Below are positions 39,459 through 52,750 of a stretch of DNA of 64,000 nt, piece by piece. The stretch is taken from the NCBI RefSeq assembly GCF_054482595.1, contig NZ_CM137008.1; one strand, 5' to 3'. How positions within the stretch are numbered: position 1 is the stretch's first letter; the number at the start of each line of letters is the position of its first letter. The notes beneath the pieces were generated by a model. It did no database searches and was not told where the DNA came from. It saw only the letters and a list, made by a program, of their open reading frames with translations. Both the position numbers and the translations under genes were made by a program.

Positions 39459-40028
39459 TTATTTTTCTTCACTACGAAGCAGTTCATGCTGTATTTTTGT
39501 TAAACATTCGTAAGACTCATCTTTGTTCGGGAGATGTGCTGTCATTCGAGCATAAGTTGGCTTCTCATCTTTAAAATATTTAACCATGATTGAATTATCA
39601 AGGACTGCCAACAACTGAGCTGGATCACTGCTCTTTTTTTGATAGATACCCGCTCTTATATAACTTCTAAACCGATCGCCGAGAAACGCCGTTTTTTCTG
39701 CTGTATTTATCAACTCCTGCAACGTTCCTTTGATGGCATGATTTTCATTAAGGCGTAGTGACCCGACACGAATTAAGAGTCTCGCCCCGCTTGATGTGAA
39801 TTTATTATTTTTACATGTACCCAGTTCTGTTTGCCAATAATACTCACCGATGTCCTCATTCTGATACCATCTCCACATGGCTTTATTATTTAAGACAGGA
39901 AACGCGGAAAAAATAGTACCCTTAGCGAAAATAGTAAAACAATCATGATCTTTAGCTTGTATTTCGCAATCAGCTATAACACCAAAATTAACAAATATCA
40001 TCAGCAAAAAGAACAAAACTCTTTTCAT
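39459..40028 (-). CDS. Putative Rhs immunity protein (periplasmic; signal peptide)
   Basis: 189 aa, [19 protein letters not shown]|DCEIQ...; its ATG overlaps the rhs stop (ATGA); AT-rich like the Rhs C-terminal tip. It may correspond to K-12 ybfC, but this was not verified. Confidence 0.65.
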
Positions 40029-43000
40029 TTTCTTATTCCTCTCGATGTTCTCTGTTTCATTTTAGCTAAAATTTCACCCAAATCATCTATCCCTGCTGTT
40101 GCTGGCCCATCGGGTTTATTAATGTCTGGGAATAAATAGGGTTCTGCACAAGTATATCCTGGTGGTAATTGAGTTGTTGGCCAATTTGTCTGTGGCAGGT
40201 AATCACTTGCTGTCTTTGTATCCATCCCTGGATACTGGGGATCATCCTGTGGCGTACAAGTCAGATTTGGTTTTACCCACTTCCTGCAATACAGTGTGTA
40301 GTCGTAAGGGCTTAATGCTCTGAAGAATGTTTTGAAAACATTAGGCGCACTACTGGCCTGGTCAATAGGATATGGCAGTCTTAATTGTTTCGCTATGTCT
40401 GGCAATTTACTTGGATCGGGCGTAGGCGGTTTGTTGGGTCTCGCTCCATATCCGCCATTATTTAAGTGTCCATATTTTGATGCCAGTCCCATTGAATCTA
40501 TATACTGAACCGGATTCAACGGATACTGATAAAAATTCCATCCCCCCTTCAGTCCAATCGGATCCTGAGTGATATACCTCCCCTGCAGCGGGTCATAATA
40601 GCGGTGGCGGTTGTAATACAGGCCGGACTCCTCATCATACTGCTGACCCGGCAGGCGGATGAGCTGCTGCAGCTGGTGCGGGTTCTCTTCATTCAGCTGG
40701 TTACCCCATTCATCGTATTCTGCGTACCACGCTGTTGTCCCTTCCGTGCTGATAAGCGCCAGCGGCAGGCCGCGATGGTCGCAGTGGTACAGGTGGATTT
40801 TTCGCGCCGGCGTGTACACCGGGTCCATCTGGTTTTGCATCTGCTTCACCGTCAGGCCGCACGATGCCAGCCAGCGGCGGCTTTCCTCACTCACCCGGTC
40901 AGCCAGGATTTCACTTTCCAGCCGGTCGAGCATCTGCACCAGCACCGGCGGGAACACCACACTGCCACCGTCTTCACCGCCGGACTGCTGAAGGGCATCC
41001 GCCAGGCTGCGGCGCTGCGTTCTGGCCAGTTCACCGGTGGCAGTTTCAACTCTGATGAGTGGTGTGAAGCTCCCCGGCTGATAAATCGTCTGGATGCGGG
41101 TTCTGTCGTTCTGTATCGTGGTCAGGCGGTCGCCATCCCAGCCGTACCAGGTCACTTGCGGTTTCCGTGACAGCGACATCCAGCCCGTCAGGTCCCGTTC
41201 ACGTCGCCATACCCGTTTTGCCACCCTGCGGCCCAGCGGGTCGTAAAGATAGCGGCTTTCGACCAGCGGCTCTGCATATTGTGTCCGCGTGTAGTGCACC
41301 AGCCGGTGCTGACTGTCGTAATGGTACCGGTGGGTGCGCTCATCATCCGTGCGGATAACCCCTTCCGGGATGAGGTCGGTTTTCTCTGTCAGTCTGCCGT
41401 GACGGTCATACCGGTAAAGATAGTGCGCGTCACGGGCGATACGGTTATCCGGCCACATGCTGAGGGTGCTGTCCGGGTGCAGCTCCGGGTCGGGCAGGCG
41501 GTTACCTGCCGGGTCCGTGGCATACGGGATGCGGATATCAAGGTTCGCTGCCGTGGTGTGAACGCCGGTCAGCCTGCCGGAGTCGCTGTAGCTGTAACTC
41601 CGGGTATGGCGCGGGCTGCTGATGCGGATGAGTTCGCCGTTGTCGTTCCAGGTGTAATCGCGGTCAGACTGCAGGCTGTTCAGGTGCTGGCTCTGTAACT
41701 GCCCGGCAGGGGTATAAGCGGTGGTGAGTTCATAATGGCCGAAGCTGCGCAGCGTTTCCCGGTGCAGGCGGTCGCGGGTGAAATCCACCAGCGGTGTGTC
41801 GCCGAGCTTCATGCCTGACAGCCAGCCGCTGCCGTAGGTCAGCCATTCCACGGCGGGCAGGCTGTCCGGTATACAGCGGTTCGCCAGCCCCTGCGCGTTG
41901 TAAGCGTGTCTGGTCTCATGCTGCCAGAGCAGTGCTTCCGTCTGCGGGTGATGCACCGTCTGACGCTCACCGGTCAGGCGGCCTTTCTCATCATACCTGT
42001 AATGCACCGCTACCCGGTGCCCTTCGCTGATATGGCTGATGTCTGTCAGCCAGCCACGTTCGTCATACCGCCACCGCTCTGCGGTTTCACCCTTCACGGT
42101 GCGGTGCGTGAGGCGGTCTGCTTCGTCATAGTGCCAGTGGGTGACCAGACCCTCATCCTCGCTGCGGATAAGTTTGCCGGTCAGGTCGTGGTGATAATGC
42201 TGTGTGCGGCCGTCAAAGCCGGTTTCCTGTATCAGCCGGTCGAGTACATCGTAACGGAAGGTGGTGTGGCTGCCGTTTTCACTGGTCAGGCGGATGACCC
42301 GTCCGGCAGCATCGTATTCCATACTGCGCGTCAGACCGCCCTGCGTGGTACGGATGGCCTTTCCCCACGCATCGTACTGTGTCCCGTTTCTGCTGCCGTC
42401 CGGAGCAATGACGGCGGTCAGGTCACCGGCGGCGTTGTATTCATACCGCATTTCATGGCCCTGCATGTCTTTCACGGCAATTAACCGTCCACGGCTGTCG
42501 TATGCGCGGTACTGACTCAGCCCTTCCTCGCGGTGCACCGCCGTCATCTGCCCGAAACGGTCATGGTCATAACGGGTTACATAACCGGAACAGTCGGTGA
42601 AGCTCAGCAACTGGCCGTAACGGCTCCACGTCATGGTTTTCCGGCTGCCGGTGGCATCGTCCGTTGCGCAGGGTAAGTCACTGTGTGGATTATCATAACG
42701 GTAGCGGGTGATATCGCCGTCAGGGGCGGTTTCCTGAATCAGACGGCCGGATTCATCATATTCCCGGCGCATTTCCAGCCCGTCAGGCCCGGTGGCTGAC
42801 GTTAACTGGCTGTGGTGGTTATAGTAAAATGCCGATGCCCTGCCATCCGGTGTGGTGATGCGCGTGATGAGTCCCGTCACCACATCCGGGCTGTATTCTG
42901 TTGTCCGGCCTGCGGCATCCGTCTGTGCCTTAAGCCTGCCCACCGCATCAAACTGACTCTGCGTGACGCTGCCGTCCGCGTGTTCCTTTTTCACCACCCG

Positions 43001-44224
43001 CTTCAGCCCGCCTTCGCCCTGCGTGTGCAGCACTTCACGGCGGTCCAGGCTGTCGGTGATGGTGATGCGGTTTTGCTCATAACAGTAGGTGTAGCTTAAG
43101 CCCGCCGGGTTAAGCTGCTCTGTCACCCGCCCGTCGCTGTCGTAACGGTAACGGATTTCCGGTCGGCCCGTGTGACGGTGCGCCACCATCCGGCCCCGGT
43201 ATTTATCATCGTAAGTAAAGCTGCGCACCTGTGTATTGCTGCGGTCATACACCGCCGCCAGTTCGCCGCGTGGCGTCCAGCCATAGCGCACCAGCGGCGC
43301 GGCTGGCAGGTTGTCCGGGTATTCCGGGTCGTGCGTCAGCCACACGGCAGACAGACGGATGCCGTTGTCCCGGCCATATTCGGTGTAACCCGGCAGGGTA
43401 TCAGGAAAAGCGGACGGTTCCGTCCCGCCGGAAGAGGCCTGCTGCCGGGCTTCTTCTGCCCGCTGCGCCTGCGTGGTCAGTACCAGCCGGAAGTGACGCC
43501 CGGCACCATCCGTCACGCCGGTGATTTCGCCGCTGAATTCACCGGCGGCTTCGCGGTGGAACGTCTGTGTGCGCCCGAAGCGGTCCACCAGCCCGGTCAG
43601 TACCCGGTACGGCGGCAGCGGCGCAGGCAGCACCTCATCCGCTTCCGGCACCCGCTCACACCAGCCGAGCAGCCACCACGGCCCCTGCGGACTGTTTGTC
43701 GCCAGATAACGATGCGGACTTAAGCGGAGTTCTTCCGGCAGCGCCTGCCAGAGTGCGGCCAGCCGGTGACCTTCATCCAGTTTCGCCACGCCGCCGCGCA
43801 CCAGCCACAGTGACTCGCTGCGGCTGTAACCGTCCTCACCGGGAAACAGGTGCTCAAAATACAGGCTTCTGCCGCCGTTATCACTGAGTATCAGTGTGTT
43901 ATCGCGCAGCTGTAAGCGGATATCCGCAGGCATTTTCCAGCCGGGGCCGAGGCTCCCCACCGGCGCGGGCGTTTTTGTCCGGTAACTGCTGTAGGTGCGG
44001 GAGAGAATGAACGGCAGCGGGGCGGGCAGGGCGATGTCGGTTTCACCGGGAAGGACCTTTGCACCGAGCAGCGGATTGACCGGATGGCCGGACGTCACCC
44101 CGCCGGGGCACACCGAACAGGCCACGCCGGTGGGGGCACCAATACGTACCCCGGCTGAACCCTGGACAATGCTACCGCCATACTGCGTCATGTCGCCCTG
44201 ACGCGCCGCCGGTTTTCCGCTCAT
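40025..44224 (-). CDS. rhsC: Rhs family protein (RhsC-type): PAAR-like N-terminus, YD-repeat shell, variable C-terminal toxin tip
   Basis: 1399 aa, [42 protein letters not shown]...; many YD/RYxYD repeats; core ends near ...[16 protein letters not shown] (40484-40498), followed by a 152-aa AT-rich tip (40028-40483). Confidence 0.93.
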
Positions 44225-44466
44225 CTGCTCATCCTTGTATTATCGGGTTATTTGTCCGCTGACAGGCAAAACCCTACAGATTTATAAGAAAGCCTTAAGT
44301 GAGATATCCGTCAGATAGAAACAATTAGGAAAATATTTATATATATTTCATGAATATATGTTTCGATTGGTATAACGGTGTCTAAATATTCCTCTGAACA
44401 TCTTCCTGATACAAAAAACCGCCAGCGTTTCCGCTGGCGGTTTTCAATGTATTCAGAACTCAGCAA

Positions 44467-44673
44467 TCAATAAAAATCACCGGTTGCCTTTTCGGCCTGA
44501 TCCATCCACACCGGTTTATCGCTGGTTTTCGACCAGACGCGATGCAGGTAGCTGTAAAAGCGGGCGCGGTCTTTCCAGAAAAGCATGAAAGGCAGCGCCA
44601 GAACGCCCGCTGCAACCGCATAAGTACGGCGTAAAAAGATAAGCCATGCTGGATATTCTCTGTAGAGTTCCAT
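44467..44673 (-). CDS. ybfA: DUF2517 small protein
   Basis: 68 aa, [68 protein letters not shown]. Confidence 0.9.
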
Positions 44674-44885
44674 ACTTTTCTCCCCCTTTTGTATCTACCC
44701 GGTGAATGGCACCGGAAAATGAATTTGTTTATCTGATGAAAATAGTACCGCCTTTTGTGTAATTTTACTACTCATCCGACCACTTATTTTTGCTTATTGA
44801 TGGTTTATTTACATTCACCCTGTAATTAAGTTACACAAAAGTTAAATTAATACTAAACATTAGTTAAATCATGGCTTTTGCCATT

Positions 44886-44908
44886 TTTATACTTTTTTTA
44901 CACCCCGT
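44886..44908 (+). promoter_or_regulatory. KdpE response-regulator binding site in the kdpFABC promoter
   Basis: TTTATA-N5-TTTACA direct half-sites within catttttatactttttttacaccccg, about 80-100 nt upstream of kdpF; matches the KdpE operator as I recall it. Confidence 0.65.
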
Positions 44909-44984
44909 CCGCAGATTTTTGCGAAATCTTTGCAGCCAGAATTCTACCCTTCCGGTATCACTTTTAGGCCACTGGAGGTGCACT

Positions 44985-45074
44985 GTGAGTGCAGGCGTGA
45001 TAACCGGCGTATTGCTGGTGTTTTTATTACTGGGTTATCTGGTTTATGCCCTGATCAATGCGGAGGCGTTCTGA
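44985..45074 (+). CDS. kdpF: K+-transporting ATPase small subunit KdpF
   Basis: 29 codons from a GTG start: (M)[28 protein letters not shown]; stop overlaps the kdpA ATG (TGATG). Confidence 0.85.
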
Positions 45075-46747
45075 TGGCTGCGCAAGGGTTCTTACTGATC
45101 GCCACGTTTTTACTGGTGTTAATGGTGCTGGCGCGTCCTTTAGGCAGCGGGCTGGCGCGGCTGATTAATGACATTCCTCTTCCAGGTACAGCGGGCGTTG
45201 AACGCGTACTCTTTAGCGCGCTTGGCGTCTCTGACCGTGAGATGAACTGGAAGCAGTATCTCTCAGCCATTCTTGGCCTGAATATGCTGGGGCTGGCGGT
45301 GCTGTTTTTTATGTTGCTCGGTCAGAACTATCTGCCGCTTAATCCGCAACAACTGCCGGGGCTGTCGTGGGATCTGGCGCTGAATACCGCCGTCAGCTTT
45401 GTCACCAATACCAACTGGCAAGCTTACAGCGGTGAAACCACGTTGAGCTATTTCAGCCAGATGGCGGGTTTAACGGTGCAAAACTTTCTTTCTGCCGCCA
45501 GCGGGATTGCGGTGATTTTTGCCCTCATCCGCGCGTTTACCCGCCAGAGCATGAGCACACTCGGGAATGCCTGGGTCGATCTGCTACGCATCACGTTATG
45601 GGTGCTAGTCCCTGTGGCGTTGTTGATCGCACTGTTTTTTATTCAACAAGGTGCGCTGCAAAACTTTCTGCCCTATCAGGCAGTGAATACCGTTGAAGGA
45701 GCGCAACAGCTGTTACCCATGGGGCCAGTAGCTTCTCAGGAAGCGATCAAGATGCTCGGTACTAACGGCGGTGGCTTCTTTAATGCCAACTCGTCGCATC
45801 CGTTTGAAAACCCAACCGCACTGACCAACTTCGTGCAGATGCTGGCGATCTTCTTGATCCCAACAGCGCTGTGCTTTGCCTTTGGTGAAGTGACGGGCGA
45901 TCGCCGCCAGGGGCGCATGTTGCTGTGGGCGATGTCAGTGATTTTTGTCATCTGCGTAGGCGTGGTGATGTGGGCAGAAGTTCAGGGTAATCCTCATCTG
46001 CTGGCGCTCGGCGCAGACAGCAGCATCAATATGGAAGGTAAAGAGAGCCGTTTCGGCGTGCTGGTCAGTAGCCTGTTTGCGGTCGTGACTACGGCGGCGT
46101 CCTGTGGCGCGGTGATTGCGATGCATGATTCGTTTACCGCTCTCGGTGGCATGGTGCCGATGTGGCTGATGCAAATTGGTGAAGTGGTATTCGGCGGTGT
46201 CGGTTCTGGTCTTTACGGCATGATGCTGTTTGTCCTGCTGGCGGTGTTTATTGCCGGGCTGATGATTGGTCGTACACCGGAATATCTGGGTAAAAAAATC
46301 GACGTACGTGAGATGAAACTGACTGCACTGGCGATTCTGGTCACCCCGACGCTGGTGCTGATGGGCGCGGCGCTGGCAATGATGACCGACGCCGGACGTA
46401 GCGCCATGCTCAACCCTGGCCCGCATGGTTTTAGCGAAGTGCTGTACGCCGTGTCATCCGCCGCTAACAACAACGGCAGCGCCTTTGCCGGATTAAGCGC
46501 CAACTCTCCGTTCTGGAACTGTTTACTGGCGTTCTGCATGTTTGTCGGTCGCTTCGGGGTGATTATCCCGGTGATGGCAATTGCCGGTTCGCTGGTGAGT
46601 AAAAAGAGCCAACCCGCCAGCTCCGGCACGCTGCCAACGCACGGCCCGCTGTTTGTTGGCCTGTTAATCGGCACCGTGTTGCTGGTTGGCGCACTGACCT
46701 TTATCCCTGCCCTGGCGCTTGGTCCGGTGGCGGAATATCTCTCCTGA
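45074..46747 (+). CDS. kdpA: K+-transporting ATPase subunit A
   Basis: 557 aa from [38 protein letters not shown]...; the listed ORF is extended upstream. Confidence 0.96.
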
Positions 46748-46769: not shown

Positions 46770-48818
46770 ATGAGTCGTAAACAACTGGCGCTATTCGAAC
46801 CAACACTTGTCGTTCAGGCGCTGAAAGAAGCGGTGAAAAAATTAAACCCGCAGGCGCAATGGCGCAATCCGGTGATGTTTATCGTCTGGATCGGCAGTCT
46901 GCTGACCACCTGTATTAGCATCGCGATGGCAAGCGGTGCGATGCCCGGCAATGCGCTGTTTAGCGCGGCCATTAGCGGTTGGCTGTGGATCACCGTACTG
47001 TTCGCTAATTTCGCCGAGGCGCTGGCAGAAGGCCGCAGTAAAGCGCAGGCCAACAGTCTGAAAGGGGTGAAAAAAACTGCTTTTGCTCGCAAGCTGCGCG
47101 AACCGAAATATGGCGCTGTGGCAGACAAAGTTCCTGCCGATCAACTGCGTAAAGGTGACATCGTGCTGGTAGAAGCTGGCGATATTATCCCCTGCGATGG
47201 TGAAGTCATTGAAGGCGGCGCATCGGTCGATGAAAGCGCCATCACCGGGGAATCGGCACCGGTGATCCGTGAATCCGGTGGCGATTTTGCCTCCGTCACT
47301 GGCGGCACGCGTATTCTTTCTGACTGGCTGGTGATTGAGTGTAGCGTTAACCCCGGCGAGACATTTCTGGATCGGATGATCGCGATGGTGGAAGGCGCAC
47401 AGCGACGTAAAACGCCGAACGAGATTGCCCTGACCATCCTGCTGATTGCCCTGACTATCGTCTTTTTACTGGCAACCGCCACGCTGTGGCCGTTTTCTGC
47501 GTGGGGCGGTAATGCAGTCAGTGTAACGGTACTGGTGGCGCTGCTGGTCTGTCTGATCCCAACCACTATTGGCGGCCTGTTGTCAGCGATCGGCGTCGCC
47601 GGGATGAGTCGGATGCTGGGCGCGAATGTGATTGCCACCAGCGGACGTGCAGTTGAAGCGGCAGGTGACGTTGACGTTCTGCTGCTGGATAAAACCGGCA
47701 CCATCACACTCGGTAACCGTCAGGCATCGGAGTTTATCCCTGCGCAGGGCGTGGATGAAAAAACGCTGGCTGACGCCGCACAACTGGCTTCGCTGGCTGA
47801 TGAAACGCCGGAAGGCCGCAGTATTGTGATCCTCACCAAGCAGCGTTTTAACCTGCGCGAGCGCGATGTGCAGTCGCTCCATGCCACCTTTGTACCGTTT
47901 ACTGCGCAAAGCCGGATGAGCGGGATCAACATCGACAACCGCATGATCCGTAAAGGTTCTGTCGATGCCATTCGCCGCCATGTTGAGGCTAACGGTGGTC
48001 ACTTCCCTGCCGATGTTGATCAAAAAGTCGATCAGGTTGCGCGTCAGGGGGCCACGCCGCTGGTGGTGGTGGAAGGTTCTCGTGTGCTGGGCGTTATTGC
48101 GCTGAAAGATATCGTTAAAGGCGGCATTAAAGAACGCTTCGCGCAACTGCGCCAAATGGGCATTAAAACGGTGATGATTACCGGCGATAACCGTCTGACT
48201 GCCGCCGCGATAGCTGCAGAAGCGGGCGTCGATGATTTCCTCGCCGAAGCGACACCGGAGGCCAAGCTGGCATTGATTCGTCAGTATCAGGCGGAAGGTC
48301 GTTTGGTAGCGATGACCGGCGACGGCACCAACGATGCTCCGGCGCTGGCGCAAGCAGATGTCGCGGTGGCGATGAACTCCGGTACTCAGGCGGCGAAAGA
48401 AGCGGGCAATATGGTGGATCTCGACTCTAACCCGACCAAGTTGATCGAGGTGGTGCACATTGGCAAACAGATGCTGATGACCCGTGGCTCGCTGACCACC
48501 TTCAGCATTGCCAACGATGTGGCGAAATACTTCGCCATTATTCCGGCGGCGTTCGCGGCAACGTATCCGCAGTTAAATGCGCTGAACATCATGCGCCTGC
48601 ATTCGCCCGACTCCGCCATTCTCTGTGCGGTCATTTTCAACGCCTTGATTATCGTCTTTTTGATTCCCCTGGCGTTAAAAGGTGTGAGTTATAAACCGCT
48701 TACCGCTTCTGCCATGTTGCGCCGTAAGTTATGGATTTACGGTCTGGGTGGGCTGCTGGTGCCGTTTATTGGTATCAAAATCATTGATTTACTGCTGACC
48801 GTTTGCGGTCTGGTGTGA
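46770..48818 (+). CDS. kdpB: K+-transporting P-type ATPase subunit B
   Basis: 682 aa, P-type ATPase motifs ([23 protein letters not shown]). Confidence 0.97.
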
Positions 48819-48826
48819 GGTTTACC

Positions 48827-49399
48827 ATGCGTGGATTACGTCCGGCGTTATCGACATTTATCTTTCTGTTATTGATTACTGGCGGCGTTTACCCGCTGCT
48901 GACCACCGCGCTGGGGCAATGGTGGTTTCCCTGGCAGGCCAACGGTTCGTTGATCCGTGAAGGTGATACGGTGCGCGGTTCGGCATTAATCGGGCAGAAT
49001 TTTACCGACAACGGCTATTTTCAGGGTCGCCCGTCGGCAACGGCAGAAATGCCCTATAATCCACAGGCTTCTGGCGGGAGCAATCTGGCAGTCAGTAACC
49101 CGGAGCTGGATAAACAGATAGCCGCACGCGTTGCCGCATTACGGGCCGCTAACCCGGATGCCAGCACGAGCGTTCCGGTTGAACTGGTGACGGCATCGGC
49201 AAGCGGGCTGGACAATAACATCACCCCACAAGCGGCGGCCTGGCAGATCCCACGCGTAGCGAAAGCGCGTAATCTCAGCGTTGAACAGCTCACGCAACTG
49301 ATCGCAAAATACAGCCAACAACCACTGGTGAAATATATCGGCCAGCCGGTCGTCAACATTGTCGAACTCAATCTGGCGCTGGATAAACTTGATGAATAA
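48827..49399 (+). CDS. kdpC: K+-transporting ATPase subunit C
   Basis: 190 aa from [27 protein letters not shown]...; the listed ORF is extended upstream. Confidence 0.93.
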
Positions 49400-52076
49400 C
49401 GAACCCTTACGTCCCGACCCCGATCGTCTGCTGGAACAAACTGCCGCGCCGCATCGGGGGAAGCTGAAAGTTTTCTTCGGTGCCTGTGCAGGCGTCGGGA
49501 AGACCTGGGCGATGCTGGCGGAAGCCCAGCGACTGCGGGCGCAAGGGCTGGATATTGTGGTTGGCGTGGTAGAAACCCACGGGCGGAAAGATACCGCCGC
49601 AATGCTGGAAGGGCTGGCTGTTCTGCCGCCAAAACGCCTGGCGTACCGTGGGCGGCACATCAGCGAGTTTGATCTCGATGCTGCCCTCGCCCGCCGTCCG
49701 GCGCTGATCTTAATGGACGAACTGGCGCACAGTAATGCGCCAGGTTCTCGTCATCCTAAACGCTGGCAGGATATCGAAGAACTGCTGGAAGCTGGCATTG
49801 ATGTTTTCACAACCGTCAACGTTCAGCATCTGGAAAGTCTGAATGATGTGGTCAGCGGCGTCACCGGAATTCAGGTACGGGAAACCGTGCCCGATCCTTT
49901 TTTCGATGCCGCCGACGACGTGGTGCTGGTGGACTTGCCCCCGGACGATCTGCGCCAGCGGCTGAAAGAAGGCAAAGTCTATATTGCCGGGCAGGCGGAG
50001 CGCGCCATTGAACATTTTTTCCGCAAAGGCAATCTGATCGCCCTGCGCGAACTGGCACTGCGCCGTACTGCCGATCGCGTTGATGAGCAAATGCGCGCCT
50101 GGCGGGGGCATCCTGGCGAAGAGAAAGTCTGGCACACGCGCGACGCGATCCTTTTATGCATCGGCCATAACACCGGCAGTGAGAAACTGGTCCGCGCGGC
50201 GGCGCGGCTGGCGGCGCGGCTGGGTAGCGTCTGGCACGCGGTGTATGTTGAAACCCCTGCCCTGCATCGCTTACCGGAGAAAAAACGTCGGGCAATTCTC
50301 AGCGCCTTACGTCTGGCGCAGGAGCTGGGCGCGGAGACGGCAACACTTTCTGATCCAGCGGAAGAGAAAGCGGTAGTGCGTTATGCCCGTGAACATAATC
50401 TCGGCAAGATTATTCTCGGTCGCCCAGCCTCGCGCCGCTGGTGGCGTCGGGAAACGTTTGCTGACCGACTGGCGCGCATCGCCCCCGATCTCGATCAGGT
50501 GCTGGTCGCGCTTGATGAACCACCCGCCCGCACGATTAACAACGCGCCGGATAGCCGCTCTTTTAAAGACAAGTGGCGGGTACAGATTCAGGGATGCGTG
50601 GTTGCCGCCGCGTTATGCGCCGTTATCACCTTAATTGCCATGCAGTGGCTGATGGCGTTTGATGCCGCCAACCTGGTGATGCTGTATCTACTTGGCGTGG
50701 TGGTGGTGGCGCTATTTTATGGACGCTGGCCTTCGGTGGTTGCTACCGTCATTAATGTGGTGAGTTTCGATCTCTTTTTTATCGCCCCACGCGGCACGCT
50801 CGCCGTCTCTGATGTGCAATATCTGCTGACCTTCGCGGTGATGTTAACCGTCGGGCTGGTGATCGGGAACCTTACTGCGGGTGTGCGTTATCAGGCACGG
50901 GTAGCCCGTTACCGCGAGCAACGCACACGGCACTTATATGAAATGTCGAAAGCTCTGGCGGTGGGCCGCAGTCCGCAGGACATCGCCGCCACCAGCGAAC
51001 AATTTATTGCCTCCACGTTTCATGCCCGCAGTCAGGTGTTGTTGCCCGATGACAACGGTAAATTGCAGCCGTTAACACATCCGCAAGGAATGACGCCGTG
51101 GGACGATGCCATCGCGCAGTGGAGTTTTGATAAAGGCCTGCCTGCGGGTGCGGGCACCGACACGTTACCCGGCGTGCCGTACCAGATTTTGCCGTTAAAA
51201 AGCGGTGAGAAAACCTACGGGTTGGTGGTGGTGGAACCGGGGAATCTGCGCCAGTTGATGATCCCGGAACAGCAGCGCCTGCTGGAGACGTTTACGCTGT
51301 TAGTCGCCAATGCGCTTGAGCGGCTGACGCTGACCGCCAGCGAAGAACAGGCGCGGATGGCAAGCGAACGTGAACAGATCCGCAACGCCCTGCTGGCGGC
51401 GCTTTCGCATGATTTACGCACTCCGCTCACGGTGTTGTTCGGTCAGGCAGAAATCTTAACGCTCGATCTGGCAAGCGAAGGATCACCCCACGCCCGCCAG
51501 GCCAGCGAGATTCGTCAGCATGTGCTGAACACTACCCGACTGGTGAATAATCTACTGGATATGGCGCGAATTCAGTCCGGCGGCTTTAATTTGAAGAAAG
51601 AGTGGTTAACGCTGGAAGAAGTAGTCGGCAGCGCGCTGCAAATGCTGGAACCGGGTTTATCGTCGCCCATCAATCTTTCTCTGCCAGAACCGCTGACCTT
51701 AATCCACGTTGACGGGCCACTCTTTGAACGGGTGCTGATTAATTTGCTGGAGAACGCAGTGAAATATGCGGGTGTGCAGGCCGAAATTGGTATCGATGCC
51801 CACGTTGAGGGCGAAAATCTACAACTGGATGTCTGGGATAACGGCCCCGGACTTCCGCAAGGCCAGGAGCAGTCGATTTTTGATAAGTTTGCTCGTGGGA
51901 ATAAAGAGTCGGCAGTCCCGGGTGTAGGGCTTGGGCTGGCAATTTGTCGGGCGATTGTGGATGTACACGGCGGCACCATTACCGCGTTCAACCGACCGGA
52001 AGGTGGTGCCTGTTTTCGTGTTACACTTCCCCAGCAAACCGCTCCTGAACTTGAAGAATTTCATGAGGATATGTGA
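49392..52076 (+). CDS. kdpD: Sensor histidine kinase KdpD
   Basis: 894 aa from [42 protein letters not shown]...; overlaps the kdpC end by 8 nt. Confidence 0.96.
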
Positions 52077-52750
52077 CAAACGTTCTGATTGTTGAAGATG
52101 AACAGGCTATTCGTCGCTTTCTGCGCACGGCGCTGGAGGGCGACGGGATGCGCGTCTATGAGGCCGAAACGCTGCAACGCGGCTTGCTGGAGGCGGCTAC
52201 CCGTAAGCCAGATTTGATTATTCTCGATCTTGGCCTGCCCGATGGTGATGGGATTGAGTTTATCCGCGACCTGCGCCAGTGGAGCGCGGTGCCGGTGATT
52301 GTGCTTTCCGCACGCAGCGAAGAGAGCGACAAAATCGCCGCGCTGGATGCCGGAGCGGATGATTATCTAAGTAAGCCGTTTGGCATTGGCGAATTGCAGG
52401 CCCGTCTGCGCGTCGCTTTACGCCGCCACTCCGCCACCGCCGCGCCCGATCCGCTGGTGAAATTCTCCGATGTTACCGTCGATTTAGCCGCCCGCGTGAT
52501 TCACCGGGGTGAGGAAGAGGTGCATCTCACGCCGATTGAGTTTCGCCTGCTGGCAGTGCTGCTCAACAACGCCGGAAAAGTGCTCACCCAGCGCCAACTC
52601 CTTAACCAGGTGTGGGGGCCAAACGCGGTCGAACACAGTCATTATTTGCGTATTTATATGGGACATCTGCGACAAAAACTGGAGCAAGACCCGGCCCGGC
52701 CTCGCCATTTTATTACTGAAACTGGGATTGGTTATCGGTTTATGCTTTAG
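52073..52750 (+). CDS. kdpE: Response regulator KdpE (OmpR family)
   Basis: 225 aa, [60 protein letters not shown]...; 4-nt overlap with kdpD. Confidence 0.96.
   Translation: MTNVLIVEDEQAIRRFLRTALEGDGMRVYEAETLQRGLLEAATRKPDLIILDLGLPDGDGIEFIRDLRQWSAVPVIVLSARSEESDKIAALDAGADDYLSKPFGIGELQARLRVALRRHSATAAPDPLVKFSDVTVDLAARVIHRGEEEVHLTPIEFRLLAVLLNNAGKVLTQRQLLNQVWGPNAVEHSHYLRIYMGHLRQKLEQDPARPRHFITETGIGYRFML

Follow-up and report, generated by a model that had tools for sequence, protein, structure and literature searches.

The Escherichia coli kdpFABC promoter with its KdpE operator, and a candidate second KdpE-like box at the -35 position

The DNA under study is a 64-kb stretch, called here the window, and the positions given are those of this whole stretch. 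The kdpFABCDE operon downstream of the kdpFABC promoter is intact, and its genes are collected in Table 1 together with the divergent neighbour ybfA and the elements of the spacer that separates both transcription units. The products KdpF, KdpA, KdpB, KdpC, KdpD and KdpE all scored above the curated cut-offs of the corresponding NCBIfam equivalogs. The KdpE protein encoded in the window, which would be the one binding to the operator, is identical to a crystallised KdpE chain from the PDB at 223 of 225 positions, and has the phospho-acceptor D52 as well as R193, R200 and T215, the residues described as those contacting the DNA (PMC3264566).

Table 1. Coordinates in the window of the kdp genes, their divergent neighbour and the elements of the spacer
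Feature	Position	Strand	Basis
ybfA, divergent neighbour, 68 aa	44467-44673	-	ORF; RefSeq
ybfA-kdpF divergent intergenic spacer, 311 bp	44674-44984	.	ORFs; RefSeq
Difference from MG1655: 1-bp A indel	near 44717		
Difference from MG1655: C for T	near 44820		
Distal box of high affinity, as the minimal fragment bound by KdpE (3 bp + S1 + 5 bp + S2 + 1 bp)	44883-44903	+	identical to K-12; PMC3264566; nearly invariant in 24 Enterobacterales sequences
KdpE half-site S1, TTTATA	44886-44891	+	sequence; PMC3264566
KdpE half-site S2, TTTACA	44897-44902	+	sequence; PMC3264566
Difference from MG1655: T for C	44908		
Candidate proximal box TTTGCG-N5-TTTGCA (b3 44918-44923, b4 44929-44934)	44918-44934	+	fixed-offset conservation; KdpE binding putative
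Probable -10 hexamer TACCCT (TAnnnT)	44945-44950	+	conservation of T, A and final T (44945, 44946, 44950)
Transcription start zone, predicted	44953-44957	+	published numbering and conserved -10
Shine-Dalgarno GGAGG, 6 nt before the kdpF GTG	44974-44978	+	sequence; GGAGGTG kept across genera
kdpF, GTG start, 29 codons, TGA stop (45072-45074)	44985-45074	+	ORF; NF011332; RefSeq
kdpA, 557 aa	45074-46747	+	TIGR00680, E = 3.2e-301; RefSeq
kdpB	46770-48818	+	TIGR01497
kdpC	48827-49399	+	TIGR00681; start from the RefSeq annotation of the identical O157:H7 locus
kdpD, sensor kinase	49392-52076	+	NF007793; RefSeq
kdpE, response regulator, operator-binding protein	52073-52750	+	NF007820, E = 4.4e-147

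The genetic context was compared with that of an O157:H7 genome which is identical over 44866-44960, and where the gene order is RHS core protein, ybfA, kdpFABCDE and speFL-speF. By this context genome, the 1399-aa ORF at 40025-44224 (minus strand) corresponds to the RHS element core protein, in the position of rhsC in K-12; downstream of the RHS gene, the O157:H7 genome carries a frameshifted ybfC, a gene for an NTF2-fold immunity protein and an ISEc1 transposase. Just downstream of ybfA on the minus strand there is a perfect 9-bp hairpin at 44419-44441 (CCGCCAGCG-TTTC-CGCTGGCGG) with an A-run on one side and a T-run on the other, which looks like the ybfA terminator, though it was absent from the output of the terminator scan.

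The first gene of the operon had been described from the letters alone as a 29-codon kdpF initiated by GTG, whose stop overlaps the start of kdpA, and both points were confirmed. The GTG is found at 44985-44987, and the frame that it opens matches the KdpF equivalog NF011332 from end to end (residues 1-29 of 29, E = 9.6e-22, 76.7 bits against a cut-off of 56), and its product is a 29-aa hydrophobic peptide encoded directly upstream of kdpA and overlapping it. In the TGATG overlap, the TGA of kdpF and the ATG of kdpA (45074-45076) have the A at 45074 in common, and the RefSeq annotation of the identical sequence names both genes. That the first product is instead encoded by the 67-codon frame that is open from the ATG at 44871 (44871-45074) is hardly conceivable, since both the operator and the promoter come after this ATG, which would thus be absent from the kdp transcript, the coding-pattern conservation across genera begins at the GTG, with a conserved GGAGG before it, the equivalog covers precisely the 29 residues, and the RefSeq product is also of 29 aa.

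Almost certainly, the segment 44883-45076 comprises the promoter of the E. coli kdpFABC operon with its leader and kdpF, in essentially the K-12 form. The alignment of 44660-45080 with MG1655 (NC_000913.3) showed that the 421 nt differ by a 1-bp indel and two substitutions, three changes in all, which leave operator, core promoter, leader and kdpF untouched. The 30-bp KdpE probe from K-12, CATTTTTATACTTTTTTTACACCCCGCCCG, is found at 44882-44911 with 29 of its 30 bases, and the 21-bp minimal fragment with all 21, the single mismatch of the probe (T at 44908, C in K-12) being located 5 bp 3' of the minimal site. The locus is thus like the K-12 site kdpFABC_BS in its half-sites, spacer, minimal-site flanks, core promoter, leader, kdpF and kdpF-kdpA overlap, all of them identical, and also in having a divergent ybfA upstream and kdpABCDE downstream; it differs by the substitution just mentioned and by two changes further upstream in the ybfA-kdpF spacer. 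The position of the operator in this spacer is collinear with that of K-12, where the site is located around 50-70 bp upstream of the kdpFABC start. The crystal structures of KdpE bound to DNA, 4KNY and 4KFC, belong to the K-12 system.

The same region is spread through practically the whole species, as the 407 bases from 44674 to 45080 were recovered from 5423 of the 5426 complete E. coli genomes, in every case with kdpF and kdpA annotated over them, and the segment 44866-44960 was identical in 355 of these 5423. Among the most divergent E. coli alleles sampled, variation was found at 44873/44874, 44905, 44908, 44942, 44955 and 44966, the operator being invariant. The T at 44908 is a minority allele, common to O157:H7 PV15-279 and E. 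albertii.

A kdpFABC promoter with a KdpE operator is already known, and the preliminary description had recognised it by the motif TTTATA-N5-TTTACA at 44886-44902, coordinates that are exact when the sequence is read directly. The motif had been taken as the direct-repeat operator bound by phosphorylated KdpE, and this reading agrees base for base with the K-12 site published as half-sites S1 and S2 (PMC3264566); the alignment to the K-12 kdpFABC operator, which had been proposed as the test of that reading, was run and gave an essentially perfect match. Both half-sites are separated by the spacer CTTTT, and the motif is embedded in TTTTTATACTTTTTTTACA (wider context, CATTTTTATACTTTTTTTACACCCC), 83-99 nt upstream of the kdpF GTG. 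The exact motif occurs once in the window when both strands are considered, and in none of 100 dinucleotide-preserving shuffles. Allowing up to one mismatch it is still the single match in the 64 kb, yet 26 of the 100 shuffles yielded at least one, so that the significance of the operator is carried by the exact match, the position and the homology, and not by motif statistics alone. By itself, the operator motif is only moderately improbable.

These shuffle matches with one mismatch and the AT-rich character of the spacer are what could be said in favour of a motif that arose by chance in T-rich intergenic DNA and has no regulatory role. Such a reading has next to no probability and is, on the alignment and the conservation, already refuted: the exact motif was absent from the shuffles, the operator has the same sequence as the K-12 site, which was footprinted experimentally, and its distance to kdpA is fixed across the Enterobacterales, with the motif also present beyond them.

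Binding of KdpE and activation at this promoter, as published for K-12, would carry over to the window by identity of sequence. Narayanan et al. 2012 described two imperfect 6-bp direct repeats, S1 (TTTATA) and S2 (TTTACA), 5 bp apart and located inside a 23-bp DNase I footprint from -72 to -50 that is credited to Sugiura et al. 1992 (PMC3264566). According to the same work, a 21-bp fragment that includes 3 bp before S1 and 1 bp after S2 is enough for KdpE binding, with one DNA-binding domain per half-site and a Kd of 200-350 nM, and in EMSA dinucleotide transitions in TTTA abolish the binding, single changes leading to partial binding (PMC3264566). In a genomic SELEX, Shimada et al. 2018 obtained the kdpF/ybfA spacer as the single target of phosphorylated KdpE (PMC5934670). 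Choudhary et al. 2020 detected KdpE ChIP-exo peaks in the kdp promoter with signal-to-noise ratios (S/N) of 324 and 155, and a decrease of kdpA by around 12 log2 units when kdpE was knocked out, with KCl at 0.1 mM (PMC7657598).

The conservation of the operator outside E. coli was also studied. For this, genome contigs were scanned with the first 250 residues of KdpA, which yielded 80 loci. Among the Enterobacterales, 23 loci had enough upstream sequence, Pluralibacter being left out because of a contig end, and in 21 of them the pattern TTTAYA-N5-TTTAYA was found with at most one mismatch at 185-191 nt upstream of kdpA; the exceptions were Rosenbergiella and Yersinia aldovae, the box of the latter containing one inserted base pair. 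The operator of Yersinia aldovae reads TTTTTATTACTTTTTTTACA, the 1-bp insertion altering either S1 or the spacer, and compared with other Enterobacterales its leader also has around 30 bp inserted.

In a MAFFT alignment of the 330 nt upstream in 24 Enterobacterales sequences, the operator (44883-44904) was the longest nearly invariant block, and the best-conserved non-coding one. Other conserved blocks were TTTTT-C at 44916-44922, ATCTTT-C at 44926-44933, T-A-N3-T at 44945-44950 and the GGAGGTG before the start codon, and the gap-free spacing from S1 to the conserved blocks was the same in all but one genus. The box, often in the form CTTTAC-N6-CTTTAC, was also detected upstream of kdp in Moraxellaceae, Pseudomonas, Burkholderiales, Bacteroidota and a metagenome-assembled genome (MAG) of Bacillota.

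The preliminary description had extended the promoter over 44700-44984, and this span holds from about 44883 to 44984, where the recognisable elements of the kdp promoter and leader are found, and fails for 44700-44880, a segment that nothing ties to kdp regulation except a weak KdpE ChIP-exo peak (MG1655 729095-729106, S/N 15; PMC7657598) mapping to around 44700-44712. No KdpE-like motif was found at this spot, which is located around 30 bp upstream of the ybfA start. The upstream two thirds of the spacer are AT-rich and ybfA-proximal, with a GC content of 0.23-0.29 at 44750-44899; the AT-rich segment 44750-44880 is conserved only among close relatives in the upstream alignment, and presumably holds the ybfA promoter. 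The palindrome ATGGC-TTTT-GCCAT (44871-44884, plus strand) abuts the operator; Escherichia retains it, Citrobacter and Kluyvera do so in part, and some E. coli alleles carry the variants ATTAC and ATTGC. The palindrome was flagged as terminator-like by the scan, as was 45003-45019, and both hits were considered incidental, the first being a 5-bp palindrome beside the operator and the second lying inside kdpF. An Rfam search of 44200-45200 with E <= 1 returned only sub-threshold chance matches, with no known RNA element in the leader or the spacer.

Concerning the core promoter, the conservation points to TACCCT as the -10 hexamer of a promoter that would have no canonical -35. At +59 from S1, TAnnnT was found in 91% of the Enterobacterales loci and in 57% of the distant loci, compared to a median of 0% at other offsets, and the hexamer located 17 bp upstream of TACCCT is CGAAAT, which is no -35. 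This is the arrangement of activator-dependent sigma-70 promoters, in which a recognisable TAnnnT -10 goes together with a -35 that, at 16-18 bp, is poor or missing. A sigma-70 consensus scan of 44200-45200 found no promoter, as expected because the promoter is activator-dependent, and such a scan is uninformative for promoters of this type. As canonical -35 elements, both TTGCGA (44919-44924) and TTTGCA were rejected, their spacers to the conserved -10 being of 20 and 10 bp, respectively. TTCTAC (44942-44947), 17 bp after TTGCGA, was also rejected as a -10, as its first positions are unconserved across genera and 44942 varies within E. coli.

Regarding the transcription start, the published footprint at -72 to -50 (PMC3264566) and the half-sites numbered -67 to -62 and -56 to -51 on a promoter derivative (10.1101/256826) would put it at around 44953/44954, and the conserved -10 favours a start near 44957, so both predictions are 3-4 nt apart.

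With these elements, the operon would work as follows. Under K+ limitation KdpE would be phosphorylated by KdpD, as published, and a dimer of KdpE~P, bound head-to-tail to TTTATA/TTTACA upstream of a weak sigma-70 promoter, would activate transcription as it does in K-12. The mRNA would have a leader of around 30 nt with the GGAGG Shine-Dalgarno sequence, and translation would begin at the kdpF GTG, the 1-nt overlap in TGATG, typical of translational coupling, suggesting that kdpF and kdpA are coupled. The degenerate KdpE-like box at the -35 position may, in addition, take a second KdpE dimer that contacts the RNA polymerase.

Like S1/S2, this candidate proximal box is a direct repeat of the 6-5-6 type, and it starts 32 bp downstream of S1, around three helical turns. 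The period between b3 and b4 is 11 bp, b4 ends 10 bp upstream of TACCCT, and the box overlaps the -35 position. In the whole window, the pattern TTTRYR-N5-TTTRYR had just two matches, the distal and the proximal boxes, with 0.82 expected by chance.

The conservation of the proximal box was analysed by scanning offsets from S1 in 43 loci, 22 from Enterobacterales and 21 distant ones. Outside of the operator and its T-tract and half-site register shifts, +32 was by far the best offset for the KdpE pattern, with a mean of 2.64 mismatches in Enterobacterales and 3.95 in the distant loci against around 8 elsewhere (z = -6.4 and -9.8, respectively), z-scores that overstate independence because the anchor was the upstream member of a 32-bp pair in 7 of the 43 loci (three distant and four Enterobacterales) and because related distant loci, six from Burkholderiales and two from Pseudomonas, entered the statistics. 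Half-site-like pentamers were found at +32 in 95% of the Enterobacterales and 57% of the distant loci, and at +43 in 95% and 76%, compared to medians of 0-5% at other offsets. In this way, the distal box, a 15-bp linker, the proximal box, 10 bp and TAnnnT follow each other with unchanged spacing in taxa that range from Enterobacterales to Burkholderiales, Bacteroidota and Bacillota. Near-perfect KdpE boxes are placed at the 32-bp distance in Succinatimonas (TTTATAcaaaaTTTATA), the Bacillota MAG (TTTACCgcatcTTTACA) and Prolixibacteraceae (CTTATAaaaccCTTATA), and in GC-rich taxa the proximal half-site repeats the sequence of its distal counterpart together with the flanks, as in Pseudomonas, where CTTTACGCCC is found at both positions. 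In E. coli, the proximal hexamers TTTGCG and TTTGCA both have a G instead of the A of the KdpE pattern TTTA at position 4.

It is possible, though we hold it only as a tentative reading, that the kdpFABC promoter carries two KdpE boxes, the distal one at 44886-44902 and a degenerate proximal one at the -35 position. One of the published KdpE ChIP-exo peaks (MG1655 728873-728902; PMC7657598) maps to 44904-44933, thus to the linker and the proximal box, and the strongest one (MG1655 728827-728858; PMC7657598) maps to 44948-44979; at these places the ChIP-exo peaks cannot separate KdpE from cross-linked RNA polymerase. No description of a second KdpE box was found in the literature searched, a set outside of which Sugiura 1992 and Narayanan 2014 fall. 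The arrangement is conserved, KdpE binding to the proximal box is putative, and we consider this box a lead and not a result.

On balance, we incline slightly to the explanation that TTTGCG-N5-TTTGCA is not a KdpE site, and that it corresponds to core-promoter DNA, as a displaced -35 or a contact of alpha-CTD, or to curvature produced by phased T-tracts, KdpE acting solely from the distal box in a class I manner. This agrees with the published DNase I footprint, limited to the distal box at -72 to -50 (PMC3264566), with the 4/6 match of TTGCGA to the -35 consensus, and with the T-runs at 44884, 44893, 44916 and 44929, which are roughly in helical phase; likewise, RNA polymerase that was cross-linked together with KdpE could be the source of the ChIP-exo signal over 44904-44979. 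However, neither TTGCGA nor TTTGCA is at the right distance from the conserved -10 to serve as a -35, and the copy of the distal half-site and its flanks in GC-rich taxa such as Pseudomonas and the near-perfect boxes of Succinatimonas, the Bacillota MAG and Prolixibacteraceae speak against this explanation as well. Against it is also that KdpE bound to the distal sites of a promoter derivative made no contact with the RNA polymerase (10.1101/256826).

If KdpE~P does fill the proximal box, either cooperatively or only together with RNA polymerase, the activation would be of class II, like that of PhoB, and this action through the proximal box would explain why KdpE, bound to only the distal sites of an engineered promoter, made no contact with RNA polymerase in the failed cryo-EM attempt. 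The layout at 44918-44934 is that of class II sites, with tandem repeats of 11-bp period over the -35 and around 10 bp from the -10. The pmra-box bound by PmrA at pbgP has the same 6-5-6 direct-repeat layout; the box of PhoB at pstS extends from -41 to -25, compared to around -39 to -23 for the proximal box, and the pmra-box is located 4 bp further downstream (PMC10570014). Both the pho box and the pmra-box replace the -35 element, as the candidate proximal box does, and PhoB and PmrA contact sigma-70 there. By contrast with these two systems, occupancy by KdpE of the proximal box is so far putative, its half-sites in E. coli have G for A at position 4, and the only KdpE site defined experimentally is upstream of the -35 region. 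The situation also resembles that of OmpR at ompF and ompC, where a regulator of the same family acts from several tandem direct repeats that are placed in helical phase ahead of a weak promoter, but the OmpR sites are contiguous and end near -40, whereas here the boxes are separated by a 15-bp, G/C-rich and variable linker and the second one overlaps the -35.

The finding of the operator is the re-identification, at its normal place in the genome, of one of the best-characterised two-component-regulated promoters of E. coli, and as such it matters little, its value being that of a correct annotation and of a positive control for the scan. As to the structural side of the activation of RNA polymerase by KdpE, the only attempt to obtain a transcription-activation complex, carried out by cryo-EM with a promoter derivative, lost KdpE (10.1101/256826; PMC10570014). 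In this respect, a conserved box at the -35 position provides a concrete and cheap mechanistic hypothesis that could be of modest importance, and suggests the use of the native promoter over a derivative with a consensus -35 for structural work.

In Mycobacterium smegmatis, a 22-bp KdpE motif, CCGTAAAGAAACCATCAAGGCC, was reported as having no similarity to the E. coli site (PMC5401905). Its reverse complement, GGCC-TTGATG-GTTTC-TTTACG-G, is a 6-5-6 direct repeat resembling TTTAYR-N5-TTTAYR.
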